Positions 5,026 to 29,764 of a stretch of 64,000 nt of DNA are shown one piece after another. A program made the position numbers and the translations under genes. Each line of letters opens with the position of its first letter. Positions within the stretch are counted from its first letter, which is position 1. Location of the stretch: the NCBI GenBank assembly GCA_030650275.1, contig JAUSEK010000011.1, forward strand, positions 73,890 to 137,889, written 5' to 3'. The notes beneath the pieces were generated by a model. It searched no databases. It was not told the origin of the DNA and saw only the letters and a list, made by a program, of their open reading frames with translations. This stretch comes from Candidatus Omnitrophota bacterium (lineage in GTDB: Bacteria > Omnitrophota > Gorgyraeia > Zapsychrales > Fredricksoniimonadaceae).

Positions 5026-6180
5026 ATGCGTTTGATACGGATTTGGACTGGAATTTTATTTGTATTGTTGGCGGCCCTTGGATTGTGGATCGCTTCCCAG
5101 AGGCCCTTATGGAACGATGAGTATTACTCTTTAATCTATATTACCTTGGGGCAGTCCTACAAAGCGATCCTCATAGGACTTCACGAAGGCGGTAATTCTC
5201 CGTTATCTTTTGTTTTACAAAAGGCGCAATGCGACCTGTTTTCTTATCATCTCCCGCAGGAATGGGTCAAAGGGCATTGGGAAGGGACCTATGTCTTTGA
5301 TCAGTTCTTTTTAAGGATACAATCAGTTGTTTTCATGTCAGCGGCCTTGAGCGCGGTATTTTATTATTTTGGACGGCGTCATTCCTGGGGCATGGGCCTC
5401 TACGCGTTAGCCGTGACCATGACATCTTTCTTGTTTTGGATCCATTGGACAGAAGCCCGGCCGTACGCGGAGTGGTTTGCTCTGAGCCTGTTCCAGATCT
5501 TATTTTTATTGAATATTTTAGAAGGCCCGGCCGATCAAAATAAAAAGAGCTGGTACGGTCTTGTTTTCATTCATTGGCTTTTGGCTTTGACGTCGATCAT
5601 CAGTGCCGTTCAAATTACGGCGGCCGGCGCGGTATTATGGATGTTCCGTCGTCCACGGCTCCTTTGGTATGTTCCCCTGGTCCTGCTCCCTCTGGGGATA
5701 TGCGGATTTTATTACATTCATTCGCCGCAATACCTCTCTTACTTTGTTGATGGTCCGGTGGCCTTAATTAATGCTAATATCTCCAAGGATCGATTATTTT
5801 TTATTTTTATGTCCGCCCTTGTTCTTATTGTTCAATGCCGGGGGAAGGATTGGAAGGCGCATTTGGAAATTAAATATTTAGCTTTTTTTCTTTTGATGCT
5901 GGGGGGCTTCGGGCTCCTGCTTTTGAAATTGAAGTATGGTCAAGGAGAAGGACAGAAAATTTTGCAAATTTCTAACCGTTATTTTTTGTCATTGACCCCA
6001 GCGGGGATCGTGGGGACCGTGCTTTTGTCGGAATATTTGATACGCGCCTTTCCGTCAAGGGTATGGAGAGCGGCGGCGATCGTGATTTTGGCCGGCTTTT
6101 TAGTTTTCCGTGCATACAGAACGATCCAACTGGTTCCCAACCAGATCTTACCTACCGGTCTAGAATTCATTAAGAGCTAA
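5026..6180 (+). CDS. Polytopic membrane protein, putative GT-C fold glycosyltransferase (ArnT/PMT-like)
   Basis: About 10 predicted hydrophobic helices, with an N-terminal TM followed by a DE-containing loop (RPLWNDEYYSL). It lies downstream of the GtrB-like gene, as in three-component Gtr glycosylation modules. Confidence 0.4.
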   Translation: MRLIRIWTGILFVLLAALGLWIASQRPLWNDEYYSLIYITLGQSYKAILIGLHEGGNSPLSFVLQKAQCDLFSYHLPQEWVKGHWEGTYVFDQFFLRIQSVVFMSAALSAVFYYFGRRHSWGMGLYALAVTMTSFLFWIHWTEARPYAEWFALSLFQILFLLNILEGPADQNKKSWYGLVFIHWLLALTSIISAVQITAAGAVLWMFRRPRLLWYVPLVLLPLGICGFYYIHSPQYLSYFVDGPVALINANISKDRLFFIFMSALVLIVQCRGKDWKAHLEIKYLAFFLLMLGGFGLLLLKLKYGQGEGQKILQISNRYFLSLTPAGIVGTVLLSEYLIRAFPSRVWRAAAIVILAGFLVFRAYRTIQLVPNQILPTGLEFIKS

Positions 6181-6200: not shown

Positions 6201-6229
6201 TTGACAGGGGAAAGAGAGAGTTTATAATT
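6201..6229 (+). promoter_or_regulatory. Consensus sigma70 promoter: TTGACA, 17-bp spacer, TATAAT
   Basis: cTTGACAggggaaagagagagttTATAATtgg. Perfect -35 and -10 hexamers at optimal spacing in one of the few intergenic gaps. Confidence 0.6.
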
Positions 6230-6234
6230 GGGAT

Positions 6235-6249
6235 GTTCAATAATTGAAC
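6235..6249. promoter_or_regulatory. Perfect 7-1-7 palindrome GTTCAATAATTGAAC at the predicted transcription start (candidate operator)
   Basis: Seen directly in the sequence. An identical palindrome recurs at 18020-18034 downstream of a second copy of the promoter. Confidence 0.45.
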
Positions 6250-6262: not shown

Positions 6263-6820
6263 ATGCCTAAAGAACTTTTAAACGAACGCGAATTTGAATT
6301 GGTGAATATCGTGGGGGCGCAATTAGGCGTTAACCAGCGTGATATTTCCCGCCAATTGAGGGTTTCCTTAGGAATGACAAACATGCTTTTGCATCGTTTG
6401 ATCGCCAAAGGGTATATCCGCATCCATCAGCTGAATAAGCGCAAAATACAATACCTTTTGACCCCCAAGGGGTTTTCCGAGAAATTGCGCAAATCCATCA
6501 GATATACCATTAAAACCCTCAATTCCATTGAAACCATTAAGGATCATTTAAAAACAATTTTTAAGGAATCGTACCAAGAAGGAGAAAGAAACTTCAATAT
6601 TCTTGGCCATTCTGATCTGGCCTTGTTGGCGGAAATGGCTATCAAGGAAGTTTCCAAGGGAGATCACACCATCGTATTTATTCAAACACTTCAGGAAGCC
6701 AATAAAGATGCGTTGGCCTGTATTTGTAAGGAAGGGTATGAAGACCTACCTCTCCAGGGACCAAAAATGATGAATTTGATCACAGAGTTAGCTCAACGGG
6801 AAACAAGATTCATTCATTAA
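6263..6820 (+). CDS. Winged-helix transcriptional regulator (MarR-like N-terminal HTH) with uncharacterised C-terminal domain
   Basis: N-terminal ~80 aa (LVNIVGAQLGVNQRDISRQLRVSLGMTNMLLHRLIAKGYIRI) has the HTH-wing pattern. First gene after the consensus promoter/palindrome. Confidence 0.5.
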   Translation: MPKELLNEREFELVNIVGAQLGVNQRDISRQLRVSLGMTNMLLHRLIAKGYIRIHQLNKRKIQYLLTPKGFSEKLRKSIRYTIKTLNSIETIKDHLKTIFKESYQEGERNFNILGHSDLALLAEMAIKEVSKGDHTIVFIQTLQEANKDALACICKEGYEDLPLQGPKMMNLITELAQRETRFIH

Positions 6821-6826
6821 CAAAGG

Positions 6827-7888
6827 ATGGTTATGGATACGACTATTTTAGACAACAAAAGTATTTTGATCACCGGGGGAACAGGATCATTCGGTAAGAA
6901 AATGGTCCAGATCGTTTTAAAACAATTCCGTCCCAAGCGATTGGTCGTTTTTTCCAGGGATGAATTAAAACAATTTGAAATGGCGCAAAAATGGAAACCA
7001 TCCGAGCATCCTTGCCTGGAATATGTGCTGGGGGACGTGCGCGACGGCAACCGTTTATGCCGGGTTTTTGAAGGCATTGATTATGTGGTCCACGCGGCGG
7101 CGCTCAAGCAGGTCCCCGCGGCCGAGCGCAATCCCGATGAATATATTAAAACCAATGTCATGGGGGCGATGAACATCATTGAAGCGGCATTGCATTGCCA
7201 TGTCAAGAAAGTGATCGCCCTGTCAACGGACAAGGCGTGCAACCCCATCAACCTTTACGGGGCGACAAAATTATGTTCCGACAAACTGTTCGTGGCTGAA
7301 AACAACGCGGTCCTTCCGTCGAGAACGCAATTTTCAGTCGTGCGTTACGGCAATGTCGTCGGTTCCAGGGGTTCCGTCATCCCATTTTTCAGGGAACGCG
7401 CCAAAACAGGGGTCTTGCCCATCACTGATGATCGCATGACGCGTTTTTGGATCACCCTGGATCAGGCCGTTTATCTGGTGCTGATGTCCCTGCAAAGGTC
7501 CACGGGGGGAGAAATTTTTGTCCCTCGTATTCCGTCCATGAAGATCACTGACCTGGCCACGGCGATCGCCCCGGACTGCAAACAAGAAGTCATTGGCATC
7601 CGCCCCGGAGAAAAGATCCATGAAACATTGATCAGCGAGGATGAGGCCAGGTCTGCCATTGAATTTCAGGATTGTTTTGTGGTCCAATACAATGCCGACC
7701 AACGGGACATTCTTTTGGCCCAGGCAGGAAAACATAAAGGGAAGGCCTGTCCGGAAGGATTCACTTATCGTTCGGATTCCAATACCGAATGGATGACGGT
7801 CAACGAATTGAAAGAAATGATTGAGCGCATTGCGGACGATTATGCCATTGAAAAGTCGCGTTTTTCCATGACGGGCGTTTCCCAATAG
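6827..7888 (+). CDS. pseB: UDP-N-acetylglucosamine 4,6-dehydratase (inverting), PseB/FlaA1 family
   Basis: N-terminus MVMDTTILDNKSILITGGTGSFGKKMVQIVL is near-identical in pattern to H. pylori FlaA1/PseB (MLDNQTILITGGTGSFGK). Length 353 aa. Confidence 0.8.
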   Translation: MVMDTTILDNKSILITGGTGSFGKKMVQIVLKQFRPKRLVVFSRDELKQFEMAQKWKPSEHPCLEYVLGDVRDGNRLCRVFEGIDYVVHAAALKQVPAAERNPDEYIKTNVMGAMNIIEAALHCHVKKVIALSTDKACNPINLYGATKLCSDKLFVAENNAVLPSRTQFSVVRYGNVVGSRGSVIPFFRERAKTGVLPITDDRMTRFWITLDQAVYLVLMSLQRSTGGEIFVPRIPSMKITDLATAIAPDCKQEVIGIRPGEKIHETLISEDEARSAIEFQDCFVVQYNADQRDILLAQAGKHKGKACPEGFTYRSDSNTEWMTVNELKEMIERIADDYAIEKSRFSMTGVSQ

Positions 7889-7898
7889 GTGTAAGGAT

Positions 7899-10061
7899 AT
7901 GGCAAAACAACAAAGAATGATCATCACAGGCGTCAGCGGCCTTTTGGGCAATAATCTCGCCCTTTGCCTGAAGGATGATTACACCATTTTAGGATTGTTC
8001 CATCAGCATCCCTGCGCCATTGAAGGCAATAGGCTTGAGCGGGTAGATTTAACGGACCCGGACCGGGTTAGAACTGTCGTCAGGGAGTTTCAACCAGATG
8101 TTATTATCCATTGCGCGGCCCTTTCGGATATCGAATATTGCGAAAGTCATCAGGATCTGGCCACCAAGGCCAATGTTCTGGCAACACGCCATCTCATCGA
8201 AGCCATTGACCAGACCCCCTGCCAATTTATTTTTATCTCAACAGATTCTATTTATGATGAGACCAAGGGTCCTTTGATCAATGAACAGGGAGCGGTCAAT
8301 CCTTCCAATCATTATTCATGGACAAAGATCGAAGCGGAAAAAGAGGCCTTAAAGCATAAAAATACTCTTATTCTAAGGACCAATATTTTTGGCTGGAATA
8401 TCCAGGAAAAATTCAGTTTAGGCGAGTGGATCATCCACGAACTTTCGCATCAGACCAAGATCAAGGGGTTCAGCGACGCTGAATTTTCATCCATTTATAC
8501 TTTTGAACTGGCAAAGCTCATTGACCGCGCCATCCAAAAAAAGATCCGGGGGGTTTACAATGCCGCCAGCCGCACGCATTTGTCAAAATACCAATTTGCC
8601 CGCGCGATCGCCCGGCGCTTTCAACTGGATGAGACATTGATCGAGCCGATCCCTATCGGTGATTTTGCTTTTAAAGCCAAACGCCGGAAGTTCATGGCTT
8701 TGGACACAGGCAAAATACAGCGGGCTTTGAATGTTCCGTGTCCGACCATTGAAGAATGCATAGAGAAGTTCTATCAGGATCATCAAAAAGGAGTGCCTGC
8801 CAGGATCAAACAAGGCCGGCAGGGGAGCGTTTATCCGCAACTTGATTTTATTCCTTATGGGCGTCAGTGCATTGAAGATGATGATATCCGGGCGGTGACG
8901 GATGTTTTAAAATCAGGGTATCTGACGCAAGGGCCCAAGATCGCGGAATTTGAAGAGGCATTGAAAGCAAAGACCGGCGCTTCATTTGCCGTTGCCGTCA
9001 ATTCCGGAACGTCTGCTTTACACATCGGCTGTCTGGCGGCCGGTATTCATGCCGGCGATGAGGTGATCACCTCGCCCAATTCGTTTGTGGCGTCCGCCAA
9101 TTGCATCGTTTATTGCGCAGGCACGCCGGTTTTTGCCGATATTGATCCCAAGACCTATAATATTTCCCCCCTGGCGCTCGAGCAGAAAATGACAAGGGCC
9201 ACCAGGGCCGTCATCCCTGTTCATTTTGCCGGCCAAAGCTGTGATATGCAGGCGATCCATGATATTGTCCGGCAAAAACAGAAGGAATACGGCCACAAAA
9301 TTTATATCATTGAAGACGCTTCCCATGCGTTGGGGTCCTCTTATAAGGCCAAGAAAGTCGGGTCCGGCGCGTATTCGGACATGACGGTCTTGAGTTTTCA
9401 TCCGGTCAAACACATCACCACGGCCGAAGGGGGCGCTGTCCTGACCAATGACGAGAAATTATGCCATTCCTTAAGACGGTTTCGTTCCCATGGGATCACC
9501 AATGATCCCCTGGAATTGGTCAATGAGGATGAGGCCTTTGAGCCCTCTCACGAGGGGGAACGGATCAAGCGGCCCTGGTACTATGAGCAGCAGGATTTAG
9601 GGTTCAATTACCGGATCACGGACATTCAGTGCGCTTTAGGCATTTCCCAGATCAAGAAATTGGACCGTTTTATAAAGCGCAGAAAAGAGATCGTCGGGCG
9701 TTACAATGCCGCTTTTGAAGGGCTTGATCATGTCACGACACCCTTTGAAGCCGATTTTTGTCAAAGCAATTTTCATCTCTATGTTTTGCTGTTTGATTTT
9801 GGGAAATTGGGGATGTCCCGCGCGCATTTGATGCTTGAGTTGCGCAAAAAGGGCATTCAAACGCAGGTGCATTACATTCCCATCCCCACGCAGCCCTATT
9901 ATCAAAAGAAATTCGGATACCGACGGGGTCAGTATCCCCATGCGGAGAATTATTATCAGCGCTGTTTATCGATCCCTCTTTTCGCCGCGATGAAGGACGA
10001 GGAGGTCGGGAAGGTCATTGAAGCCATTCGTAGTTTAAAACCGGTCCCCGTCCACCCATGA
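7899..10061 (+). CDS. pseC: Fusion protein: N-terminal RmlD-like NAD(P)-dependent 4-ketoreductase domain (~300 aa) plus C-terminal PseC-type DegT aminotransferase (~410 aa)
   Basis: N-terminal domain has GxxGxxG (ITGVSGLLG) and YxxxK (NHYSWTK), with the RmlD substrate-binding pattern STDSIYDE...NP.N.Y. C-terminal domain matches recalled PseC strongly (SHALGSSYKAKKVGSGAYSDMTVLSFHPVKHITTAEGGAVLTND...RSHGI). 720 aa total. Confidence 0.75.
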   Translation: MAKQQRMIITGVSGLLGNNLALCLKDDYTILGLFHQHPCAIEGNRLERVDLTDPDRVRTVVREFQPDVIIHCAALSDIEYCESHQDLATKANVLATRHLIEAIDQTPCQFIFISTDSIYDETKGPLINEQGAVNPSNHYSWTKIEAEKEALKHKNTLILRTNIFGWNIQEKFSLGEWIIHELSHQTKIKGFSDAEFSSIYTFELAKLIDRAIQKKIRGVYNAASRTHLSKYQFARAIARRFQLDETLIEPIPIGDFAFKAKRRKFMALDTGKIQRALNVPCPTIEECIEKFYQDHQKGVPARIKQGRQGSVYPQLDFIPYGRQCIEDDDIRAVTDVLKSGYLTQGPKIAEFEEALKAKTGASFAVAVNSGTSALHIGCLAAGIHAGDEVITSPNSFVASANCIVYCAGTPVFADIDPKTYNISPLALEQKMTRATRAVIPVHFAGQSCDMQAIHDIVRQKQKEYGHKIYIIEDASHALGSSYKAKKVGSGAYSDMTVLSFHPVKHITTAEGGAVLTNDEKLCHSLRRFRSHGITNDPLELVNEDEAFEPSHEGERIKRPWYYEQQDLGFNYRITDIQCALGISQIKKLDRFIKRRKEIVGRYNAAFEGLDHVTTPFEADFCQSNFHLYVLLFDFGKLGMSRAHLMLELRKKGIQTQVHYIPIPTQPYYQKKFGYRRGQYPHAENYYQRCLSIPLFAAMKDEEVGKVIEAIRSLKPVPVHP

Positions 10062-10954
10062 CATTATTTTCGCGTATAGGACTTGGGACGGCACAGTTTG
10101 GCCAGGATTACGGGATCGCCAATAAAGGCGGGAAGATCCCCCGGGAAGTGGTTTTTGATATTCTCAAGTCAGCGGCGGACCGCGGCATTCTTCTTTTAGA
10201 CACGGCCTGTGCCTATGGAGACAGTGAAGCTGTTATCGGAGAATTTATCAAGAAGGGTCCATCCCCGTTTCGGGTGGTGTCAAAATTTTCCCTGGATCCT
10301 TACAAAGAAGGAGGATTAAAGCAGCTTTTACGGCAATCTCTGGCAAAAATGAACACCGCCGGCGTTTATGGATATTTGGCCCACCGTTTGACGGATGTTT
10401 TGAATGATGAGCGCCTTTGGGCGGATATGCTGGAGGTCAAAAGGCAAGGCCTTGTTCAAAAGATCGGGGTTTCCGTCTATTCACCGCGTGAACTGGAAGA
10501 ACTGGACAAGCGCGATATCAAATTTGACCTCGTTCAATTTCCTTACAGTATTTTTGACCGGCGATTTGAAAAATGCATGCACGGATTGAAACAAAAGAAT
10601 ATTGAAATTCACGCGCGGTCCGTCTTTTTGCAAGGCCTTGCATTTATGAAGGCCGATCAACTGCCGGGGCATCTCAAAGAAGCGGGGGTCCCGTTGAGGG
10701 GACTTGCGGAACTTTCGCTCAAGCACGGCATTTCCGTTCAATCGCTGTGTTTAAATTTTGCTTTATTAAATCCTCATATTGATCGGGTCATCATGGGGGT
10801 GGGCGGCTTACGGCATTTTGAAGAAAATTTGAAAGGCCTTGAGGATTTTGATAAGGTCCGCGGTATTTATGATCAACTGCAGGGATTGAGCATCGGCAAT
10901 GAAGATATTCTTCTGCCTAACCGTTGGCCGTTAGCAATGCCGAGCAGGCGATAG
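10058..10954 (+). CDS. Aldo/keto reductase family oxidoreductase
   Basis: IGLGTAQFG...LLDTACAYGDSE motifs of AKR (TIM barrel) enzymes. Start overlaps the upstream stop (ATGA). Confidence 0.7.
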   Translation: MTLFSRIGLGTAQFGQDYGIANKGGKIPREVVFDILKSAADRGILLLDTACAYGDSEAVIGEFIKKGPSPFRVVSKFSLDPYKEGGLKQLLRQSLAKMNTAGVYGYLAHRLTDVLNDERLWADMLEVKRQGLVQKIGVSVYSPRELEELDKRDIKFDLVQFPYSIFDRRFEKCMHGLKQKNIEIHARSVFLQGLAFMKADQLPGHLKEAGVPLRGLAELSLKHGISVQSLCLNFALLNPHIDRVIMGVGGLRHFEENLKGLEDFDKVRGIYDQLQGLSIGNEDILLPNRWPLAMPSRR

Positions 10955-10965
10955 GGAATATTCTT

Positions 10966-12294
10966 ATGTTAAAGACAGAAAAAATAAATAAGGGTGCGGC
11001 ATTGTGGAAAAAAGCAAAAACGTTTATTCCGGGCGGCAATCAACTGCTTTCCAAACGCTCGGAGATGTTTTTGCCTGACCAGTGGCCGGCGTATTACAAG
11101 AAAGCCAGGGGCTGTGAGATTTGGGACCTTGATGACCGTCACTATTACGATATGAGCATCATGGGCATTGGGAGCTCTCCTTTGGGCTACGCCCATGAGG
11201 AAGTCAACGCGGCGGTGCACCAGGCGATCGATGAAGGGAATATGACGACCTTGAATTGCCCCCAGGAGGTTGAGCTTGCCCAAAAGCTGGTGGATCTGCA
11301 TGCCTGGGCGGATATGGCGCGTTTTGCCCGTACCGGAGGGGAGGCCTGCGCCATTGCGGTGCGCATTGCCCGCGCCTTTACTCAAAAAGACAGGATCGCT
11401 TTTTGCGGTTATCATGGCTGGCATGATTGGTATCTGGCGGCTAATCTATCAGACGCAAAGAATCTGGACCAACTCCTTTTGCCGGGCCTTAGTCCGGTCG
11501 GAGTTCCCCAACACTTAAAGGGCAGCGCCATCCCTTTTTATTATGGAGATGCGCAAGCGTTTAAGGAATTGGTCCAACAGCATAAAGCTGATCTGGGCGT
11601 TGTGATCATGGAGGTTGCCAGACACTCCCAGCCGGATATTGATTTCTTGCGTACGATCCGTGAAATGACCCGGGACATGGGGATCGTGCTGATCTACGAC
11701 GAGATCTCCTCCGGATTCCGGTTGAATACCGGAGGGCTCCACCTGTTGTATGACCTTCAGCCGGACATGGCTGTTTTAGGAAAGGCCTTGGGCAATGGAC
11801 ATCCCATTTCCGCGATCTTGGGAAGAGAAAAAGTCATGCAGGCCGCTCAAGAGACATTCATCAGCAGTACTTATTGGACGGAACGCACGGGCTATGCCGC
11901 AGCCCTTGAGGTGTTAAAGATCTATGAACGGGACGCTGTGCCCCAGCAATTGATCAAACAAGGAAATAAGATCCGATTGGGTTTGGAAGGCCTATTCAAG
12001 AAACATCAATTGAATATTGAGATTGAGGGACTCGCATCAAACCCCATTTTTATGATTAAAGAAAAAGACGGACTTCTGATCAAGTCCGTGTATACGCAAG
12101 AAATGTTAAAACGCAGCTTTTTAGCTTCTTCCGTTATCTATGTATCCATAGCGCATACGGACAAGATCATTGATCTATTCTTGGCGAATGCTGATGAAGT
12201 TTTTGGATGCATATCTGCCGCGATCAAAGAGGGTCAATTGGCGTCATTATTGAAGGGGCCTGTTTGTCACAGTGGATTTAAAAGGTTAAATTAA
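10966..12294 (+). CDS. Class III PLP aminotransferase, glutamate-1-semialdehyde 2,1-aminomutase-like
   Basis: FIPGGNQLLSKR...ARGCEIWDLDDRHYYD...DEISSGFR pattern of HemL-like aminotransferases. Confidence 0.7.
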   Translation: MLKTEKINKGAALWKKAKTFIPGGNQLLSKRSEMFLPDQWPAYYKKARGCEIWDLDDRHYYDMSIMGIGSSPLGYAHEEVNAAVHQAIDEGNMTTLNCPQEVELAQKLVDLHAWADMARFARTGGEACAIAVRIARAFTQKDRIAFCGYHGWHDWYLAANLSDAKNLDQLLLPGLSPVGVPQHLKGSAIPFYYGDAQAFKELVQQHKADLGVVIMEVARHSQPDIDFLRTIREMTRDMGIVLIYDEISSGFRLNTGGLHLLYDLQPDMAVLGKALGNGHPISAILGREKVMQAAQETFISSTYWTERTGYAAALEVLKIYERDAVPQQLIKQGNKIRLGLEGLFKKHQLNIEIEGLASNPIFMIKEKDGLLIKSVYTQEMLKRSFLASSVIYVSIAHTDKIIDLFLANADEVFGCISAAIKEGQLASLLKGPVCHSGFKRLN

Positions 12295-13040
12295 TGGTCT
12301 TAGCGATCGTGCAGGCAAGAATGTCAGCATCACGGTTACCGGGCAAGGTCATGAAGAAAATCTTGGGCAAACCGATCATCGGGTATTTGTTGGACCGGCT
12401 TAAAGCATCCAAACGCATTGACAAAATTATTTTGGCCACATCTACCAATCAAGAAAACGATGAACTTGTGTCTTATGTTCAAGGCTTGGGATTTGATGTA
12501 TGGCGGGGGAGCGAAGAAGATGTGTTAGGACGCTTCTTTTTTTCCGCTAAGAAATACGCGGCTGATACGGTTGTCCGTATAACGGGAGATTGCCCGCTGA
12601 TAGACACGCGGATCTGTGACCAATTGATAGATGAATTTACCAAACATCAGGTTGATTATGCTTTTCTGGCACCTAGTTTTGCCGAAGGCCTGGATTGTGA
12701 AGTTCTGAAAGCAACGGCTTTAGAAAAATGCCACCAACATGCCAAATTAGCTTCAGAACGCGAACATGTGACGCCCTATATCAAGAACCATCAGGACCAG
12801 TTTAAGTTATTTTGCATGGATAACCGCGAAGATCATAGCGGTTATCGCGTTGTCGTGGATGAACCGGAAGATCTTGCCATGTTAGAGATCTTATTCAATG
12901 ATTTCTACAAAAAGATACATCCGCAGGGCAGTTTTGATGAAATTAAAGCATACCTGGACCAGCATCCTGAATTGGTCCGGATGAATTCTCATGTGGTCCG
13001 TAATGAGGGATTTATCAGATCGCTTCAGAAGGAAAGGTGA
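12294..13040 (+). CDS. pseF: Nonulosonic acid cytidylyltransferase (CMP-pseudaminate synthetase-like; CTP_transf_3 family)
   Basis: MVLAIVQARMSASRLPGKV...GDCPLID pattern of PseF/SpsF/NeuA-type cytidylyltransferases. Confidence 0.6.
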   Translation: MVLAIVQARMSASRLPGKVMKKILGKPIIGYLLDRLKASKRIDKIILATSTNQENDELVSYVQGLGFDVWRGSEEDVLGRFFFSAKKYAADTVVRITGDCPLIDTRICDQLIDEFTKHQVDYAFLAPSFAEGLDCEVLKATALEKCHQHAKLASEREHVTPYIKNHQDQFKLFCMDNREDHSGYRVVVDEPEDLAMLEILFNDFYKKIHPQGSFDEIKAYLDQHPELVRMNSHVVRNEGFIRSLQKER

Positions 13041-13041
13041 A

Positions 13042-13596
13042 ATGAAAAAGGGAGTCCATCTTAAAACAAAACGCTTGGACCTTAAGACCTTGCGTGTCAG
13101 GCATATTTCGGATCAATACGTCAATGGTTTAAATGATGGACAGGTGAATAAATTTTTATTGGCCCCCAGGCAGAAGAAGCAAACAAGAAAAACGGTCAGG
13201 GATTATGTTGAGGCCAATCTCAATTCACCATCGGGCCTTCTATTCGGATTATTTCATAAGACCACAGGGGATCTGATAGGCACTTTGCGCGTTCATGACA
13301 TCTCCTATTTTCACTATTCTTGTTGTTTAGGGATCTGTTTATTTGACAGGTCCTATTGGGGCAAAGGTTACGCGCAAGAGGCCTTAAAAGAGGCCGTTCG
13401 TTTCGCGTTTAAAGAATTGAGGATGCATTACATTGAAGCGGGCATTTACCAGGGGAATAGGGCATCAGTACAATTGTTCAAAAAATGCGGATTCCGGAAA
13501 GTCGCGACCCATAGGGATAAGTACCGGTATGACGCGTCTTTTAGACCAGTGTTTATTTTTGGCAAGACAAATCCAGATTTTAAGCTTCGGTCATGA
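13042..13596 (+). CDS. GNAT family N-acetyltransferase (RimL-like)
   Basis: GNAT acetyl-CoA-binding motif region (GKGYAQEALKEAVRFAF) in RimL-like arrangement. Start chosen at MKKGVHLK after RBS AGGAAAGG. Confidence 0.6.
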   Translation: MKKGVHLKTKRLDLKTLRVRHISDQYVNGLNDGQVNKFLLAPRQKKQTRKTVRDYVEANLNSPSGLLFGLFHKTTGDLIGTLRVHDISYFHYSCCLGICLFDRSYWGKGYAQEALKEAVRFAFKELRMHYIEAGIYQGNRASVQLFKKCGFRKVATHRDKYRYDASFRPVFIFGKTNPDFKLRS

Positions 13597-13605
13597 GGGA
13601 TTTTT

Positions 13606-15681
13606 GTGTACTTTATTGAAAAATTAACAGTTTATTCGTGGTTGTTTTCTGTTCTTCCCGAGATCCAGCGGCGATCCAAGGCGGATAAAGATCAGGGGAA
13701 TACGCTTTTATATTATGTGGATGCGTCTTGCCAGGGGCTATGGTTGTCCCGATCGATGGCGGCTTTTCTTAAAATTGAGATCAAGCGGCTGGATTTCACT
13801 TTTTTTGACGCTAAAGACAAAAATGGCGATTTTCTTTGGTGGACAGTCATGTTTGAGGATCTTGCGGATCTGCAGAAATATATGTTCCGGTATCCGGCCT
13901 TACAGGAGATCATCCAGAAGAATAAGGCGGATGAGCACCTAAGGTTTTTTCTGATGAGACGTATTTTGTATTTTGATTCAAGCCTGTTTATCTTGATGCA
14001 CATTCTCCTGGTGCTCCGGGTCGCTTCTTTAAAGCGGAAAAAAGAGGAAAGGATCAACGTGTTCCTTTTTTCCTCCCAAAGGCCGTGGCTGTCCCAGGTC
14101 AAGAAATGGGCGGAGGCCCGGAATGTCAATATTATTCCCATGCGCCGGGGGCGCGGTTTTAGCGTCAAAGAGATCATGGCAGGCCCCGGTTTTATCAAAC
14201 ATTCCATCAAACAAGTCCTGTTCGCCTGGATGGGCACGCAAAAGGCCCTTGGAATGGCGGGTCAGGGCGATCAGAGGCATAGTCAGGACCTGTCACCCAA
14301 GATAGCCGTTGAATTTTATGGACATCTTAATCTTGATTCCCCGCAATTGAGCTCGGACCTATTTTTCTGTCAACAGGCAAGCACCTTGAATAAAGATATC
14401 CTGATCTATTTTCAGCATCCGGTGTTCCCGGTCTCGGATCAAGCGTGGGATGAGATCAAGGCGCATGGGATGTCAGCGGTTGTTATGAATCCCAGGGCAA
14501 CCACCACCTCCCGGGTCCCTTTATTCAATTATGTCGGTCAGTTGAGAGAAGAAGACCGCTCCAGGGGGGCAGCCGATGACAAGGGTAAGGATGATATCAG
14601 AAGAGATCTGTCCCGACAGGTCGCAGAATATTATAAACAGAAGGATTATTGGTCCAATTTCTTTGCGCGGCACAACATCAAAATGCATGTGTCGTGGTAT
14701 AAGATCGAATCCAAATATTTTCCGATGGCGGATGCTTTGAATGGCTTGGGAGGGGTATCTGTTATTTATCAAAGGTCTTTTGAAAGCGATTCAAATCCAT
14801 GGATGGTGACGAAAGCGGACGTTGTTTTTGGTTTTTCCAAGTTTGGGGCGCATTTGGGAAAAGACACGGATTCTGTGATCCCTTATTATGTTGTCACGGG
14901 CTATTTGGGAGACCACCGGTATCCAATTCTCAAAAAAGAAGCAAGCGTGATACGCCATGATCTGCAGCGTCATGGGGCCAATAGGATATTGGCCTATTTT
15001 GATGAAAGTTCCGTAGATGATCCGCGATGGAATATAGGGCATCAGGTGACGCAGGAGAATTACGCGTTCTTGCTCAAGAAAATCTTGGACACACCATCGC
15101 TCGGATTGATATTTAAGCCAAAGATATATTCAAATTTACGCAAAAGATTGGGGGAGGATATTGCCGATCTTTTGGATCGCGCCCAAGAGACGGGGAGATG
15201 TTATATATTTAAAGAAGTCGCGTTTCATCTGGGATCGCACCCTCCCGCGATAGCGGCATTGGCATCAGATATCGCCATTCATGGCCATCTTTGCGCGGCA
15301 ACAGCGGGCGTTGAATCAGCTTTGACGGGAACACCGACGCTGATGCTGGACAGGGAAGGTTGTTCCAAGAGCCCGGTCTATCAGTTAGGAGAAGGCCGGG
15401 TTGTTTTTAAAAATTGGGATGATCTCTGGAAAGCATGCCTTGATCACTGGGGCCATTCAGACGGGAGGCCCGGTTTTGGCGATTGGTCGCCGATGTTGGA
15501 TGAGCTGGACCCATTCCGCGATGGCCGGGCGGCCCAACGGATGGGCAGCTATCTTGAATGGATCTCCCAAGGGTTAAAAGCAAAGATCCCCCGCGAAATG
15601 ATTCTGGCGGATGCCGCCCAGCGATACGCCAAGATCTGGGGGCAGGACAAGGTATTGGCCATCAATCATGGCAGGTTATAA
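13606..15681 (+). CDS. Large (691 aa) hypothetical protein; C-terminal region has a GT-B/MurG-like donor-binding motif (possible PseG-type UDP-sugar hydrolase or nonulosonate transferase)
   Basis: C-terminal HGHLCAATAGVESALTGTPTLMLD resembles the G-rich loop/E/GxP motif of MurG/PseG-type GT-B C-domains. The N-terminal ~400 aa has no motif I recognise. It sits where pseG would be expected. Confidence 0.3.
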   Translation: MYFIEKLTVYSWLFSVLPEIQRRSKADKDQGNTLLYYVDASCQGLWLSRSMAAFLKIEIKRLDFTFFDAKDKNGDFLWWTVMFEDLADLQKYMFRYPALQEIIQKNKADEHLRFFLMRRILYFDSSLFILMHILLVLRVASLKRKKEERINVFLFSSQRPWLSQVKKWAEARNVNIIPMRRGRGFSVKEIMAGPGFIKHSIKQVLFAWMGTQKALGMAGQGDQRHSQDLSPKIAVEFYGHLNLDSPQLSSDLFFCQQASTLNKDILIYFQHPVFPVSDQAWDEIKAHGMSAVVMNPRATTTSRVPLFNYVGQLREEDRSRGAADDKGKDDIRRDLSRQVAEYYKQKDYWSNFFARHNIKMHVSWYKIESKYFPMADALNGLGGVSVIYQRSFESDSNPWMVTKADVVFGFSKFGAHLGKDTDSVIPYYVVTGYLGDHRYPILKKEASVIRHDLQRHGANRILAYFDESSVDDPRWNIGHQVTQENYAFLLKKILDTPSLGLIFKPKIYSNLRKRLGEDIADLLDRAQETGRCYIFKEVAFHLGSHPPAIAALASDIAIHGHLCAATAGVESALTGTPTLMLDREGCSKSPVYQLGEGRVVFKNWDDLWKACLDHWGHSDGRPGFGDWSPMLDELDPFRDGRAAQRMGSYLEWISQGLKAKIPREMILADAAQRYAKIWGQDKVLAINHGRL

Positions 15682-15691
15682 AGAAGGTTAA

Positions 15692-16471
15692 ATGATGCCG
15701 GTCCATATCGGAATAAAAGTTTGGGCGCAAAACACCGCTTATATCCCGCACATTCAAAAATTGGGCCAACAGGGCCATTGTGATTTTGTGGAGATCTATG
15801 TCGGTGTCAAGGCAGAACAAGAAGAGGCCAGGTGTTGGCAGGATTTAGACCTGCCCATACGCTTGCACGCGCCCCACAGCTATGGCGGGTTTAATCCCGC
15901 GGACAGTGAGGGGATGGAGTTCAAACAAGAGGCCTTGCGTCGCCTTGAGAAGTTCCGGCGGCTTTTAGGGCCTGCCAGCATTATTTTTCATCCGGGGATC
16001 ATAGGCCCTTTGCAGGAAAGCATCAGGCAATATAAATTATTTAAACAGCAATTCCCGAAAATATTTAAAGCGGCGTTCATTGAGAATAAGCCGTCCATAG
16101 GTCCCAAGCAAGAATCTTGCCGGGGAGATAGCGTTGAAGAAATACGGCCATTGATGCAGGCCATCGGTTTTGGCTTTTGCCTGGACTTTGGCCACGCGGC
16201 TTGTCATGCCGCGTGGGCCAAGAAAGATTGGCGTCAGGTCGTTGAGGATTTTATGCAATTACGCCCGCAATTATTTCACATTTCCGACGGAGACATCCAT
16301 TCTCCCGTAGACAAACACCGTCATTTGGGGGCCGGCAGTTTTCCATTAAAGCAGATGCTGGATTTTTTACCCAAGGATGCGTTCTTAACGCTGGAAACTC
16401 CTCATGATCATGAGGACAACCTGGACGATTTTTCCAAAGACGCGGATTTTATCAGGGGTCTATTAAAATGA
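15692..16471 (+). CDS. Xylose isomerase-like TIM-barrel protein (sugar phosphate isomerase/epimerase family)
   Basis: Length and His/Asp/Glu spacing (FHPG..., DFGHA..., HISDG...) resemble AP-endonuclease-2/xylose isomerase-like TIM barrels. Confidence 0.5.
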   Translation: MMPVHIGIKVWAQNTAYIPHIQKLGQQGHCDFVEIYVGVKAEQEEARCWQDLDLPIRLHAPHSYGGFNPADSEGMEFKQEALRRLEKFRRLLGPASIIFHPGIIGPLQESIRQYKLFKQQFPKIFKAAFIENKPSIGPKQESCRGDSVEEIRPLMQAIGFGFCLDFGHAACHAAWAKKDWRQVVEDFMQLRPQLFHISDGDIHSPVDKHRHLGAGSFPLKQMLDFLPKDAFLTLETPHDHEDNLDDFSKDADFIRGLLK

Positions 16472-17502
16472 TGATCCAGGGCAGGCGGATAGGGGCGGGG
16501 CAGCCCTGTTATGTCATTGCCGAATTATCCGCGAACCACGGCGGAAGCCTTGAGCGCGCTTTGCGCATCGTTCGCGCGGCTAAAGAGGCAGGCGCGGATG
16601 CCATCAAGCTGCAGACATACACGGCAGACACAATGACCCTTGATGTGGACAATGAGTATTTTCGCATCAAAGACGGGTTATGGGGTGGTAAGAATTTATA
16701 TCAATTGTATCAGAAGGCCTCGACGCCATGGGAATGGCACAAGACATTAAAAGAAGAAGCAGATAAGCTGCAGATGCATTGCTTCTCCACCCCTTTTGAC
16801 GAAACAGCGGTGGATTTTCTGGAGTCATTGGGGGTTGCGGCATACAAGATCGCTTCTTTTGAATTGGTGGATGACCTTTTATTGATCAAGGTGGCCCATA
16901 CCCGAAAACCTGTCATTATGTCCACGGGCATGGCCACGTTAGAAGAGATCCGGCATGCCCTGCAGGTGCTCCATGACAACGGAACAAAGGAAATAGCATT
17001 GCTCAAATGCGTCAGCGCCTATCCCGCACCCGCACAGGAGATGCATTTGCGCACAATGTCCGATATGCGCGCACGTTTTAAGTGTCCGGTGGGTTTATCA
17101 GACCATACGTTAGGCCCGACGGTGGCCATTGCTGCCGTTGCCGTGGGCGCCGAATTATTGGAGAAACACATCAAATTAAACCAGGAAGACGATACGCCTG
17201 ACGCCGTATTTTCCATGACCCCTGAGGCCTTTGGAGATATGGTCCAGGCCTTGCGTTTGACCGAGTCCGCTTTAGGGGAAGTGCGCTATCAGAAGACGCA
17301 GCAAGAAGGCAATTCAGTGGTTTTTCGCCGTTCCATTTTTGTTTCCAGAGACATTAAAAAGGGCGAAGTATTCACATCGGAAAATATTAAAGTCATACGC
17401 CCGGGACAGGGCTTAAGTCCGAAGTATTATGCGCAATTGCTGGGCAGGAAGGCCAAACAAGATATTTCCCGGGGAACGCCGTTATCGAGGGCTATGATGT
17501 GA
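16468..17502 (+). CDS. pseI: N-acylneuraminate/pseudaminate synthase (NeuB/PseI/LegI family) with C-terminal SAF domain
   Basis: IAELSANHGGSLERALRIVRAAKEAGADAIKLQTY is the hallmark N-terminus of NeuB-family synthases. 344 aa. Confidence 0.8.
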   Translation: MMIQGRRIGAGQPCYVIAELSANHGGSLERALRIVRAAKEAGADAIKLQTYTADTMTLDVDNEYFRIKDGLWGGKNLYQLYQKASTPWEWHKTLKEEADKLQMHCFSTPFDETAVDFLESLGVAAYKIASFELVDDLLLIKVAHTRKPVIMSTGMATLEEIRHALQVLHDNGTKEIALLKCVSAYPAPAQEMHLRTMSDMRARFKCPVGLSDHTLGPTVAIAAVAVGAELLEKHIKLNQEDDTPDAVFSMTPEAFGDMVQALRLTESALGEVRYQKTQQEGNSVVFRRSIFVSRDIKKGEVFTSENIKVIRPGQGLSPKYYAQLLGRKAKQDISRGTPLSRAMM

Positions 17503-17969
17503 TGGAGCTTTCATTTCGAGACGCGGTGTGGGAAGATGCAGAATTTCTTTTGTCATTGCGCAATGATCCTTCAGTTTGGCCCCACTGTATTCAAGCACGT
17601 CCTGTTGGCCGGAGGGAGCATCTGGAGTGGTTTAAAGACGTATTGCGGCGGGATGATGTAAGAATTTTTATTTTGTTTCAGGACCGTATTTCCATTGGGC
17701 AGGTGCGGTATGATCTTAAGCAGGAGGGGGCTTATGTCAGCATTTCCCTTTGCGCAGATCACCAAGGGCAGGGGTTTGGCGTCCAGGCGCTTAAGTTGAC
17801 GGGTCAAAAGATCTTTTCTCTAGCCAATGTGACGGCTTTAAAAGCCCTTATTAAAGAAAATAATAAGGGATCCTTGCGGTGTTTTAAAAATGCAGGCTTC
17901 TGCCGTATAGACAGAGAAAGAAATGGGAACGAATATTTTATGATCATGGAGCTTCGCAAAGCCAGTTAA
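17499..17969 (+). CDS. pseH: Small GNAT N-acetyltransferase, PseH-like
   Basis: 156 aa GNAT immediately after the synthase gene. Size and position match PseH. Confidence 0.55.
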   Translation: MMELSFRDAVWEDAEFLLSLRNDPSVWPHCIQARPVGRREHLEWFKDVLRRDDVRIFILFQDRISIGQVRYDLKQEGAYVSISLCADHQGQGFGVQALKLTGQKIFSLANVTALKALIKENNKGSLRCFKNAGFCRIDRERNGNEYFMIMELRKAS

Positions 17970-17988: not shown

Positions 17989-18016
17989 TTGACAGGACTA
18001 CTAATTCTCTTATAAT
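17989..18016 (+). promoter_or_regulatory. Second sigma70 promoter (TTGACA, 16-17 bp spacer, TATAAT), a copy of the 6201 promoter
   Basis: cTTGACAggactactaattctctTATAATt, followed by the same GTTCAATAATTGAAC palindrome at 18020-18034. Confidence 0.55.
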
Positions 18017-18019
18017 TAT

Positions 18020-18034
18020 GTTCAATAATTGAAC
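18020..18034. promoter_or_regulatory. Second copy of palindromic candidate operator GTTCAATAATTGAAC
   Basis: Identical 15-mer to 6235-6249, in the same position relative to the -10 hexamer. Confidence 0.45.
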
Positions 18035-23395: not shown

Positions 23396-24544
23396 ATGAA
23401 CGTACCGTATTCTTACTTGGATGAACAATTCGCGCAGATCGATGACTATCTGGAGGATGTCCGTAAGCTTGTTCAAAGTGGAGATTTTACCCTCGGCAAA
23501 CCCGTGACGGAATTCGAAGAGCGATTTGCTGAATTATGCAACCTCCCGCACGCGATCGGTGTCGGTTCCGGAACGGATGCGCTCATTCTTTCTTTAAAGA
23601 TCATTGGCGTTGGGCCGGGAGATGAGGTCATTACGACCCCTAATACCTTTATTTCGACGGTTGGCGCGATCGTCATGGTGGGCGCCAAGCCGGTCTTTGT
23701 CGATAATAACGATGAATACACGATCGACGTGGACAAGATCGAGCAGGCGATCACCCAAAAAACCAAAGCACTTTTGCCGGTTCATTTGACCGGATGTCCG
23801 GCGGACATGCCGCGGATCATGGCCATCGCCAAGAAACATAAGCTGTTGGTCGTCGAAGACGCGGCCCAGGCGATCCTGGCTAAGATCGACGGTAAACATG
23901 TGGGCTTCTGGGGAGAAACCGCCTGTTTTAGTTTGCATCCTTTGAAAAATTTGAATGTTTGGGGCGATGGCGGCGTGATCGTGACCCGTTGTGCAGAATT
24001 GGATCGAAAATTAAAACTTTTTCGCAACCACGGCATGACCACCCGTGATGAGATCGAGATGTTTGCGCACAATTCCCGTCTGGATTCACTTCAGGCGGTG
24101 ATCGGCAATCGTTTGATCAACGAGGTTGAGGACATCACCCAAAAGCGCATTGCCAATGCCCGGCAGTATGACGAGGCGTTCAAGGACCTGAAAGAATCCA
24201 TCACGGTCCCCAAGCGCCGGCCCAATGTTCAACAGGTTTATCACACTTATGTGCTGCGCGTCAAAGATCGCGATGTGCTTTTGGAGCATCTGATCAAGCG
24301 TGGCATTAAGGCCAAGGTCCATTATCCGATCCCGGTCCATTTGCAAAAAGCAGCCGCGTATCTTGGATATAAGAAAGGCGATTTCCCGGTGTGCGAAGCG
24401 GATGCCAAGAGGATCCTCAGCCTGCCGGTCCATCAGTATCTGAGCCCTGAGCAAATGGCCTATGTGATCGATGCTGTGCGGGACTTTTATCGCAAGGGCG
24501 CCCCGGGGAGCGCGAAAGAAGATGCATTTTATTCTCGGCGTTGA
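23396..24544 (+). CDS. DegT/DnrJ/EryC1/StrS family sugar aminotransferase, tandem paralog
   Basis: GSGTDALILSL...ITTPNTFISTV...SLHPLKNLNVWGDGG. Clear paralog of the upstream gene. Confidence 0.8.
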   Translation: MNVPYSYLDEQFAQIDDYLEDVRKLVQSGDFTLGKPVTEFEERFAELCNLPHAIGVGSGTDALILSLKIIGVGPGDEVITTPNTFISTVGAIVMVGAKPVFVDNNDEYTIDVDKIEQAITQKTKALLPVHLTGCPADMPRIMAIAKKHKLLVVEDAAQAILAKIDGKHVGFWGETACFSLHPLKNLNVWGDGGVIVTRCAELDRKLKLFRNHGMTTRDEIEMFAHNSRLDSLQAVIGNRLINEVEDITQKRIANARQYDEAFKDLKESITVPKRRPNVQQVYHTYVLRVKDRDVLLEHLIKRGIKAKVHYPIPVHLQKAAAYLGYKKGDFPVCEADAKRILSLPVHQYLSPEQMAYVIDAVRDFYRKGAPGSAKEDAFYSRR

Positions 24545-25145
24545 TTTTGACAACACGCTGGTGAATTACGACGATGTTTTTTTGAAAACAGCCCGGCAGA
24601 TGGGATTGATCGAGAACGGCGCCGTCCGGCATAAAAAGAATATACGGGATGCGGTCCGTCAGCTGCCCGATGGAGAAACCAAATGGCAGCAAGTCCAGGC
24701 GCACGTGTATGGTAAGGCGATGGATGAAGCTGTTCTGATCAGCGGTGTCGGAAGATTTTTAAAGGCCTGCCGGTCTGCCGGTCTGCCGGTGTACATTGTC
24801 AGCCATAAAACCCGATTTGCCGCGCAAGATACCGACAGGATCGATTTGCGGCAAGCAGCCTTGGATTGGATGAAGCAAAAAGGGTTTTTTGATTTCCAGG
24901 GCTTTGGATTCTCGACCGATCAGGTTTTTTTTGAATCGACGCGCCAGGATAAGGTTGGGCGGATCAAACAATTGAACTGCACGCATTTTATTGATGACCT
25001 GGAGGAAACATTTTTAGAAAAGTCGTTTCCTGAACAAACCGCCAGGATCCTTTATTCCTCACAGGGGGAAGGTCCTCGCGGGGATATGAAGGTCCTGCAT
25101 GACTGGAAAGAGATCTATGACCACTTCTTTAGTAATGGAAGATAG
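24522..25145 (+). CDS. HAD-superfamily phosphatase (candidate heptose bisphosphate phosphatase, GmhB-like role)
   Basis: HAD motif I DxDxT (GVDFDNTLV) near the N-terminus. Contains an in-frame 3x CTGCCGGT tandem repeat at 24767-24790. Confidence 0.5.
   Translation: MHFILGVDFDNTLVNYDDVFLKTARQMGLIENGAVRHKKNIRDAVRQLPDGETKWQQVQAHVYGKAMDEAVLISGVGRFLKACRSAGLPVYIVSHKTRFAAQDTDRIDLRQAALDWMKQKGFFDFQGFGFSTDQVFFESTRQDKVGRIKQLNCTHFIDDLEETFLEKSFPEQTARILYSSQGEGPRGDMKVLHDWKEIYDHFFSNGR
24767..24790 (+). repeat. Perfect tandem repeat (CTGCCGGT)x3 inside the HAD phosphatase ORF
   Basis: Read directly: ctgccggtctgccggtctgccggt, 24 nt, in frame as present. Confidence 0.9.
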
Positions 25146-27961: not shown

Positions 27962-27969
27962 AACCAGAC

Positions 27970-28635
27970 ATGGGAACATTCGTTGAGATCTTCACACCGC
28001 TGCATAAAAAAACCGCGAGAAAATACATCGATCGCATGGTGGATGATAAGGTCCATTGCATGATCAAAGCCAAAGAATATGAGGCGGATTATTGGGACGG
28101 CAATCGCCGCTACGGTTATGGCGGCTACAAATATGATGGACGATGGAAGCCCGTCGCCGAAAGCCTTATTCAGCATTACAATCTTAAAAGCAATGTCAAA
28201 ATTTTGGATGTCGGCTGCGGCAAGGCCCATCTTCTGTACGAATTAAAACAACTTTTGCCCAATGCCGAACTGCATGGGTTTGATGTTTCCCGGCATGGCA
28301 TCGCCGATGCCCCGGAGCCGATCCGTAAATCCCTGACCCTCCGCAAGGCACAGGATGTTCCTTATCCCTGGCCGGATCAATATTTTGATCTGGTCATTGC
28401 TTTAGGAAGCCTCCATAACCTGCGCGTGCCCGAGTTGGCGGTGGCGGTCCCCGAGATCGAGCGCGTCGGTAAAAATAAATTCATCATGGTGGAAAGTTAC
28501 CGCAATGAACAGGAGTTGTTCAATATGGAGTGCTGGGCGCTGACAGCCGAGGCCTTTTTTGACAACAAGGCCTGGATATGGCTGCTTGAACATTTTGGGT
28601 ACACCGGAGATTACGAATTTATTTATTTTGAATAA
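27970..28635 (+). CDS. Class I SAM-dependent methyltransferase
   Basis: Motif I ILDVGCGKAHLL. Confidence 0.7.
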   Translation: MGTFVEIFTPLHKKTARKYIDRMVDDKVHCMIKAKEYEADYWDGNRRYGYGGYKYDGRWKPVAESLIQHYNLKSNVKILDVGCGKAHLLYELKQLLPNAELHGFDVSRHGIADAPEPIRKSLTLRKAQDVPYPWPDQYFDLVIALGSLHNLRVPELAVAVPEIERVGKNKFIMVESYRNEQELFNMECWALTAEAFFDNKAWIWLLEHFGYTGDYEFIYFE

Positions 28636-28660
28636 ACCATTTTTAGGAATAGAGAAAATT

Positions 28661-29746: not shown

Positions 29747-29764
29747 AGGGAAAAAGATGATCTT

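Follow-up and report, generated by a model that had tools for sequence, protein, structure and literature searches.

A pseudaminic-acid-type operon from a Candidatus Omnitrophota bacterium with an endonuclease-IV-like barrel predicted at the PseG step

Flagella, pili, capsules and O-antigens can be decorated with pseudaminic acid (Pse), a sugar whose biosynthetic pathway is studied as an anti-virulence target. We analysed a 64,000-nucleotide stretch of DNA from a Candidatus Omnitrophota bacterium (assembly GCA_030650275.1, contig JAUSEK010000011.1, positions 73,890 to 137,889), hereafter the window, and within it a Pse-type gene cluster at 6263-17969 on the + strand. The PseG gene is missing from this window, and its slot beside pseI is taken by an endonuclease-IV-like triosephosphate-isomerase barrel (TIM; 15692-16471), which is predicted from sequence to be a non-homologous replacement of PseG at the UDP-sugar hydrolase step. 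On balance, we consider it likely that the operon makes and activates a pseudaminic-acid-type nonulosonate, and probably transfers it, for a surface polysaccharide of this Omnitrophota bacterium, with TIM replacing PseG and with an aldo-keto reductase (AKR), a class III aminotransferase (AT3) and a RimL-type GNAT (GNAT1) acting as tailoring enzymes. With rather more reserve, as a proposal falling slightly short of likely, we suggest that TIM represents a new and widespread family for UDP-sugar release that displaces the GT-B hydrolase PseG, and that AKR, AT3 and GNAT1 add a third N-acylated amino group to a CMP-nonulosonate, giving a class of sugar that is undescribed.

A Pse pathway in which PseG is missing

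Genome-based prediction of Pse pathways relies on the six canonical Pse genes, which in Campylobacter and Helicobacter act in the order PseB-PseC-PseH-PseG-PseI-PseF. Compared with that pathway, the operon shares PseB, PseC and PseI equivalogs together with a GNAT and a cytidylyltransferase (CT), all clustered and co-oriented. It differs in lacking PseG, in having a CT of SpsF type and GNATs far below the PseH cut-off, in carrying PseC fused to an RmlD-like short-chain dehydrogenase/reductase (SDR), and in holding an extra AKR, AT3, second GNAT, 691-residue GT-B protein and TIM. Open reading frames (ORFs) were scored with Pfam and with NCBIfam at its curated cut-offs. PseB, the inverting UDP-GlcNAc 4,6-dehydratase (6827-7888, +), reaches 489 bits with TIGR03589 (cut-off 407.75), has GxxGxxG and YxxxK motifs, and on this curated family score is expected to yield the UDP-4-keto-6-deoxy sugar. 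PseC forms residues 317-712 of the 720-residue fusion (7899-10061, +) and would aminate this sugar at C4, judging by 505.7 bits with TIGR03588 against a cut-off of 423.5. The pseudaminic acid synthase PseI (16468-17502, +) scores 485.2 bits with TIGR03586 (cut-off 340.25) and 332 bits with the NeuB model, below the cut-off of 399.65 there; by its family score it should condense the free sugar with phosphoenolpyruvate. Because PseB, PseC and PseI all pass their equivalog cut-offs, a different stereoisomer as the product, which the initial annotation had entertained, is not favoured.

The remaining core functions are more distant. According to the initial annotation, the core route was present within 10058-16471. 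The domains that it named all exist on the + strand by profile annotation, and the core genes are indeed there, but PseB, PseC, PseI and the second GNAT lie outside that interval, and the pathway is not complete in canonical terms, PseG being missing from the window and PseF and PseH being represented only by distant analogues. The initial annotation did not remark on the missing PseG. The gene described as PseF-like (12294-13040, +; PF02348, 4.6e-32) reaches just 32.1 bits with PseF TIGR03584 (cut-off 205.7) and is instead an SpsF-type CT of the CTP_transf_3 family. It is probably a CMP-nonulosonate synthetase and thereby a functional analogue of PseF, which would supply the CMP-sugar. We gathered related genomic loci (L-numbers; P-numbers denote homologous proteins) with TIM, the 691-residue protein or the aminotransferase as bait, covering 10 kb per side, and in seven Pse clusters among them (L085, L086, L094, L102, L105, L108, L154) an SpsF-type enzyme is the sole CT found. 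Similarly, the two GNATs resemble PseH only at the level of the superfamily, and their scores of about 34 bits lie well under the PseH TIGR03585 cut-off of 93.1: 33.5 bits for GNAT1 (12991-13596, +; PF13302, 3.7e-24; likely true start ATG 13042) and 34.4 bits for the small GNAT2 (17499-17969, +; PF13302, 9.3e-13). The PseH-like GNATs of related TIM-type clusters are likewise low (27-53 bits vs 93.1), and GNAT2-like genes or domains go with TIM and PseI in related loci. GNAT2 is probably the PseH-type N-acetyltransferase and would fill the PseH role here.

For PseG, the family scans gave no match to TIGR03590 in any window ORF. Across the same ORFs, phmmer with two PseG-like proteins returned nothing at E<=10, and a hidden Markov model (HMM) built from eight PseG-like sequences returned nothing at E<=0.01. 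Nor did the NCBIfam, phmmer and custom HMM searches reveal a PseG among the ORFs that lack annotation (5026-6180, 24471-25145 and others). On the reading favoured here, three canonical functions, PseH, PseG and PseF, are filled by distant or non-homologous proteins.

An endonuclease-IV-like barrel in the PseG slot

TIM belongs to Pfam AP_endonuc_2 ('xylose isomerase-like') and is encoded on the + strand directly beside pseI. In the TIM-family alignment A2, H59, H100, E131, D165, H168, H196, D207 and E235 are invariant and H209 is nearly so, and in the printed alignments with MJ1311 and the M. tuberculosis and S. aureus proteins these residues fall on the HAP/HPG/EN/DxxH/HxxD/DxH/E motifs. We take the motif residues from HAP to E (H,H,E,D,H,H,D,H,E) to be the nine ligands of the trinuclear metal site of endonuclease IV (Endo IV; E. 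coli Nfo), whereas in the ketose epimerases of this superfamily just four ligands are retained. A TIM profile searched against PDB sequences matched MJ1311 (2e-16), M. tuberculosis Endo IV (5zhz, 8e-14) and E. coli Endo IV (1qtw, 1e-5), as well as the endonucleases IV of S. aureus and T. thermophilus. The AlphaFold2 (AF2) model adopts a TIM-barrel fold (pLDDT 96.6), whose best Foldseek match was again 5zhz (4e-12), followed by Apn1, 3aam and 1qum.

TIM shares with Endo IV and CbiR the barrel fold and keeps the nine Endo IV metal-ligand positions, yet it scores far under both the Nfo and the CbiR cut-offs, and it is found in nonulosonate clusters, often fused to a PseH-like acyltransferase, and not among genes for DNA repair or cobamides. 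A role in DNA repair is disfavoured by this gene neighbourhood. CbiR is a small-molecule phosphodiesterase of the same superfamily that cleaves a sugar-phosphate linkage (PMC7733943), and by analogy with it the substrate of TIM would be a small molecule with a sugar-phosphate linkage rather than DNA. In the proposed scheme, TIM would be a metal-dependent phosphoester hydrolase that releases the free sugar from UDP. Our literature searches found no report of a TIM-barrel or AP-endonuclease protein in Pse biosynthesis, and nothing relevant for Omnitrophota together with pseudaminic acid.

We next turn to genomic context. Homologues of TIM were fetched with their surroundings from 80 metagenomic loci, 45 of which are >=6 kb. 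Of these 45, 32 have a PseI-type synthase and 8 more a synthase with a LegI-like best match, 28 have PseC and 24 have PseB; none has a PseG-like gene, by BLASTP and by the HMM of eight PseG-like sequences. One compact arrangement is PseB-PseC-TIM-PseI with nothing between (L117, L145). Three further clusters (L156, L136, L155) read PseB-PseC-PseF-TIM-PseH::PseI, with PseF at 272 bits against a cut-off of 206 and a PseH-like domain at the N terminus of the synthase; by sequence match they hold all canonical functions but PseG, with TIM in the PseG place. Taking the 38 loci with PseI together, 34 carry TIM only and 4 carry PseG only, with none having both and none having neither. Conversely, TIM is absent from the PseG-like loci L002, L003, L004, L074, L076, L078, L085 and L086.

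The TIM family is large, comprising 470 representatives (50% identity clusters) at E<=1e-30 in an exhaustive profile search, and its members are often fused to acyltransferases. A GNAT-like domain is found in 43 of the best 150 representatives, and among the 48 long members (alignment A4) 41 match the PseH model, and one has a sugar N-formyltransferase domain in place of a GNAT domain. The PseG-GNAT fusion in L076 follows a logic like that of the PseH-TIM fusions. As a side observation, the N-formyltransferase domain is ArnA-like and hints at N-formylated Pse variants made with the same architecture. TIM was also considered as part of the AKR/AT3 module, for example in a hydroxypyruvate-isomerase-like step, and this was rejected, many TIM clusters having neither AKR nor AT3.

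TIM is placed at the PseG step because of its conserved residues, its closest matches, its synteny, its fusions and its mutual exclusion with PseG. The same evidence speaks against the initial description of TIM as a tailoring 'sugar-phosphate isomerase'. In that earlier model, the canonical Pse pathway is complete with PseG encoded elsewhere, and AKR, AT3, GNAT1 and an isomerase or epimerase TIM act as independent tailors of a modified or epimeric product. This is the alternative that survives best, and we regard it as unlikely. The Pfam family of TIM does include sugar isomerases and epimerases, the top Foldseek matches include YcjR (3-keto-glucoside 4-epimerase) and a 'D-tagatose 3-epimerase-like' protein, and the window is 64 kb of a metagenome-assembled genome (MAG), so that PseG could be elsewhere. 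However, TIM keeps the nine Endo IV ligand positions (eight invariant, one nearly) and not the epimerase four, TIM and a PseG-like gene occur together in 0 of the 38 PseI loci, the compact clusters amount to the canonical Pse genes minus PseG plus TIM, and PseH::TIM fusions are frequent. Moreover, TIM is seen with or without AKR and AT3, and so stands outside that module.

Several points weigh against a replacement of PseG by TIM. The table of exclusion between TIM and PseG is biased by the baits and is no unbiased census, and with 10 kb covered per side PseG may sit elsewhere in the genomes. In the fold comparison, the epimerase YcjR and MbnB appear at E-values only about 100-fold weaker than the best match. 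Chemically, Endo IV cuts P-O bonds, and by analogy the product could be either the free sugar or a sugar-1-phosphate needing a further phosphatase. Every functional statement beyond family membership is a prediction. Finally, in one locus, L167, a Pse cluster with a PseG-like gene is preceded, at a distance of about 10 kb, by an AP_endonuc_2 gene, which also speaks for the earlier model. In L167 (1-1222; Omnitrophota MAG GCA_015233405.1) this gene adjoins an Epimerase_2 (LegG-like) gene and is cut by the locus end; it is a possible exception to the exclusivity of TIM and PseG. The same assembly carries a TIM-type cluster, L015, as well as L167.

A Pse cluster with accessory enzymes is as such ordinary in the field, and this one is a new example of a published pattern. 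No earlier report seems to describe the displacement of PseG that is predicted here for an Endo-IV-like barrel. If TIM does perform the PseG step, genome predictions now miss complete Pse pathways in many uncultured lineages, PseG-directed inhibitors would not cover TIM-type organisms, and a superfamily known from DNA repair and sugar isomerisation would gain a new reaction.

The accessory module and the 691-residue GT-B protein

Between PseC and the CT lie the two genes of the accessory pair. AKR (10058-10954, +; PF00248, 1.7e-34) has D48, Y53, K76 and H109 at the expected positions of the AKR tetrad by motif inspection. AT3 (10924-12294, +; PF00202, 2.2e-41; likely true start ATG 10966) is a pyridoxal-phosphate aminotransferase like glutamate-1-semialdehyde (GSA) aminomutase, with the motifs DEISSGFR and GK(286)A. 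It scores 255 bits with the GSA-aminomutase-like model PRK06209, below the cut-off of 486, and 188.6 bits with HemL TIGR00713, where the cut-off of 527.3 is not reached; AT3-type genes sit in nonulosonate clusters, not haem clusters. Homologues 57-65% identical occur in Omnitrophota, Colwellia, Pseudoalteromonas and Thalassotalea, the gammaproteobacterial ones at 57-61%.

In the 38 PseI loci, both AKR and AT3 are present in 17, neither in 18, and three are discordant, at least two of these lying at contig ends. By this distribution, the two genes behave as an optional, linked, co-inherited accessory pair. The evidence supports the view that both are additions to the core pathway and are transcribed together with it. 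The usual order in related loci is PseB-PseC-AKR-CT-AT3-(TIM or PseG)-GNAT-PseI; in the operon studied here it is PseC-AKR-AT3-CT. We also considered whether the SpsF-type CT takes the place of PseF strictly where AKR and AT3 are present. This was rejected, with six loci (L124, L135, L137, L139, L144, L160) having AKR and AT3 with a PseF-type CT and no SpsF-type enzyme; the pair occurs with either CT, and is therefore not a PseF replacement.

Fusions suggest at which level the module works. CT and AKR are fused in L101, as they are in a Vibrio Pse cluster (PMC7371886). In addition, a GNAT1-type domain is fused N-terminally to the AT3 homologues P0112, P0139, P0141 and P0144, and also to P0026, a homologue of the 691-residue protein. 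Because of these three kinds of fusion, tailoring would take place at the level of the CMP-sugar, and we infer the order CMP-sugar, redox at a hydroxyl or carbonyl, transamination, N-acylation, transfer. AKR, AT3 and GNAT1 would then form an optional tailoring module that yields, in place of plain Pse5Ac7Ac, a nonulosonate derivative bearing an additional N-acylated amino function.

Precedents for the gene pattern exist. Subgroup IA of the group I polar-flagellin glycosylation islands of Aeromonas reads pseB-pseC-AKR-pseF-class III aminotransferase-pseG-pseI, with AKR and the class III aminotransferase as its only extras, and A. hydrophila AH-1 is listed there (PMC7874193). The flagellin of AH-1 carries a 403-Da Pse-like glycan (PMC4691044). 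Similar gene sets are found in the O-antigen clusters of L. pneumophila Sg6/Sg12 (PMC3694923). The AKR/AT3 pattern is already known from Aeromonas, Legionella and Vibrio, with no function assigned in those papers. As in subgroup IA, AKR and AT3 of the operon lie inside a Pse cluster and next to the CT. The differences are that PseG is kept in Aeromonas and Legionella, whereas TIM occupies its slot here, and that the linkage to flagellin and Maf seen in subgroup IA is missing here, Wzm/Wzt, an O-antigen ligase domain and KdsB being present instead. The initial expectation of a derivatised nonulosonate is thus a reasonable one, given the linkage of AKR and AT3, the GNAT1-AT3 fusions, the Aeromonas IA pattern and the 403-Da derivative in AH-1. 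By mass arithmetic, that glycan equals Pse5Ac7Ac (316 Da) plus 87 Da; its odd nominal mass means an odd nitrogen count, which fits one extra amino group.

There are also points on the other side. The 87 Da added in AH-1 differs from a simple OH-to-NHAc change (+41), the chemistry of the AKR/AT3 module is a guess, and the likeness to Aeromonas is one of gene pattern as published. Isobaric solutions for +87 Da are addition of a (iso)seryl group, exchange of acetyl for glutamyl or N-acetylseryl, and exchange of OH for NH-glyceroyl. The AKR/AT3 pair is a recurrent one, seen in Aeromonas, Legionella, Vibrio and Pseudoalteromonas-type loci; its proposed link to the 403-Da glycan is genetically testable.

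Flagellin loci with close homologues are those of Pseudoalteromonas type, L085 (a Pseudoalteromonas assembly), L168 and L169. In these, AT3 lies in a flagellin/Maf locus with an SpsF-type CT, PseI, AKR, PseC and PseB, together with an amine-oxidase-like flavoprotein, two methyltransferases, a WbqC-like protein and a second short DegT protein. The extra genes imply further elaboration of the flagellin nonulosonate.

The largest gene of 10058-16471, making up a third of it and unmentioned in the initial annotation, encodes a 691-residue protein (13606-15681, +) with no Pfam or NCBIfam match, identical to the hypothetical protein Q7K71_03215 of a Candidatus Omnitrophota MAG. Its family comprises about 100 unannotated proteins of about 700 residues, and 79 genomic loci, under MAG labels that include Omnitrophota, Planctomycetales, Deltaproteobacteria, Acidobacteria, Elusimicrobia, Nitrospirae, SAR324 and others. 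The AF2 model (pLDDT 86, pTM 0.87) has two Rossmann-like domains in a GT-B fold. Foldseek gave 65 PDB matches at E<=0.001, of which all 50 listed are GT-B proteins, with TM-scores of only 0.3-0.57; they include TagF, OtsA, UDP-GlcNAc 2-epimerase/NeuC, polysialyltransferase and capsule polymerase. A NeuB-family, LegG or PseG gene lies within 10 kb in 29 of the 51 long loci of the family, and examples with Pfam annotation are complete legionaminic-type clusters (NeuB, Epimerase_2, PglD-like, PtmE-like, LegB, LegC). Most of the family sits in clusters of legionaminic or pseudaminic type. A CMP-nonulosonate transferase is the most economical role for this protein, a proposal that falls slightly short of likely when taken by itself, and in the scheme it would be the likely agent of nonulosonate transfer. 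A relation by paralogy to the TIGR04326-like ORF at 50096-51871 was dismissed, BLASTP giving no significant similarity.

The GT-B protein also enters a different account of the module, in which AKR, AT3 and the SpsF-type CT form a separate pathway to a CDP- or CMP-activated amino-alcohol or amino-acid-like substituent, and the TagF-like 691-residue protein attaches it to the glycan as a phospho-substituent, in a route independent of Pse activation. The best fold matches of that protein include TagF (a CDP-glycerol glycerophosphotransferase), CT-AKR fusions are known (L101; PMC7371886), and the CT at 12294-13040 is not a PseF equivalog. We nevertheless give this account little credence: the SpsF-type enzyme is the sole CT in seven Pse clusters and so must activate the nonulosonate there, in the six loci above AKR and AT3 accompany a PseF-type CT in the absence of an SpsF-type enzyme, the 691-residue family is mostly found in legionaminic-type clusters without AKR and AT3, and B. 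subtilis spsF is tied genetically to a step after legionaminic acid synthesis (PMC7439481). In that organism spsF, a putative cytidylyltransferase gene, is needed for the transfer of legionaminic acid and not for its synthesis (PMC7439481). The B. subtilis sps pathway (SpsM, C, D, G, E, F) resembles the operon in its SpsF-type CT, in place of NeuA or PseF, and in its UDP-linked precursors; it differs in making legionaminic acid and not Pse and in having an SpsG hydrolase step, with AKR, AT3 and TIM not reported (PMC7439481).

Very improbable is the idea that the 691-residue protein, and not TIM, is a diverged nucleotide-sugar hydrolase of the PseG/LegG type: it has the GT-B fold of PseG and NeuC/LegG, counts NeuC and UDP-GlcNAc 2-epimerases among its fold matches and is encoded in the operon with PseC to one side of it and PseI to the other, but it is not a replacement for LegG or PseG because its family coexists with both, with LegG (Epimerase_2) in L081 and L083 and with PseG-like genes in L002, L003, L004, L074, L076 and L078, and 31 of the 34 TIM-type clusters do without it.

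Operon organisation and the surrounding glycan island

The Pse unit at 6263-17969 lies on a single strand (+), with intergenic gaps from -50 to +10 nt. Upstream of it is a perfect sigma-70-type promoter (TTGACA-16-TATAAT, 12/12; 6201-6228, +) followed by the palindrome GTTCAATAATTGAAC (6235-6249, +), and 6201-6249 is the probable start and operator of the Pse operon. A second perfect promoter (12/12; 17989-18016, +) with a copy of the palindrome (module 17989-18034) lies downstream and appears to mark where the Pse unit ends on its 3' side and a heptose operon starts. The two modules are identical, TTGACA-16-TATAAT being followed by ATGTTCAATAATTGAACTT, which contains the palindrome. These are the only two 12/12 promoter matches in 64 kb, vs 0 expected, and both fall in the gaps bounding 6263-17969, within which terminator-like matches are at chance level. 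Because of these gaps, promoters and terminator counts, the extra genes appear to share the transcription unit of the core genes, with perfect promoters only at its flanks, and not to be transcribed separately, the possibility that the initial annotation had raised against itself. Judged by this organisation, 6263-17969 is one operon.

The palindrome is found too in the close relatives L087, L089, L090 and L096. Sharing of the promoter and palindrome modules suggests that the Pse and heptose operons are co-regulated, perhaps by the putative MarR/HTH_24-like regulator encoded by the first gene of the unit (6263-6820, +; weak Pfam MarR matches). A homologue of this gene lies directly upstream of PseB in L002, L094 and L129, and in L086 a weak HTH_24 gene takes the position upstream of PseB.

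The N-terminal part of the PseC fusion, residues 6-294, is an RmlD-like SDR reductase (PF04321, 7.3e-43) with intact GxxGxxG and YxxxK motifs. In L002, L003 and L004 the PseC-like sequence likewise forms the C-terminal part of ORFs of 708-739 residues, and L167 encodes a 716-residue product with both RmlD_sub_bind and DegT domains. Competition between the two domains for a single UDP-4-keto sugar would be expected, and the RmlD-like domain may make a 6-deoxy-L-hexosamine in parallel with Pse.

Pfam and NCBIfam scans of its ORFs identify the window as a very large surface-glycan island, with every large ORF on the + strand. Besides the Pse operon, the island encodes heptose-nucleotide enzymes (SIS, an HldE-like protein, epimerases), several DegT aminotransferases, two TIGR04372 glycosyltransferases, GT2 and GT4 enzymes, KdsB (45980-46759, +; 301 bits) and, for export and ligation, a Wzy_C/O-antigen-ligase-domain protein and a Wzm/Wzt ABC exporter. 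No flagellin, Maf or MptE-like domain was found among the ORFs scanned in the window. The context of the Pse locus is O-antigen- or capsule-like and not one of flagellin glycosylation, because flagellin and Maf are absent while Wzm/Wzt, Wzy_C and KdsB are present. Two ORFs within the island, 5026-6180 (384 residues) and 24471-25145 (224 residues), have no Pfam or NCBIfam match.

CTP_transf_3 enzymes number three in the island (12294-13040, KdsB at 45980-46759, and 62255-62980). The last of these (+) is a second SpsF-type CT with no PseF match, and is adjoined at the window end by a GFO_IDH_MocA oxidoreductase (62968-63978). The sub-cluster at 26184-33984 encodes a split transketolase (26184-27961), a sugar C-methyltransferase (30313-31563) and a carbamoyltransferase (32359-33984), together with methyltransferases, a member of the Zn-dependent alcohol dehydrogenase family, a WbuC-type cupin and an SDR, and a B12-binding radical SAM enzyme (35287-37023) lies farther downstream. 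This sub-cluster suggests a heavily modified branched sugar.

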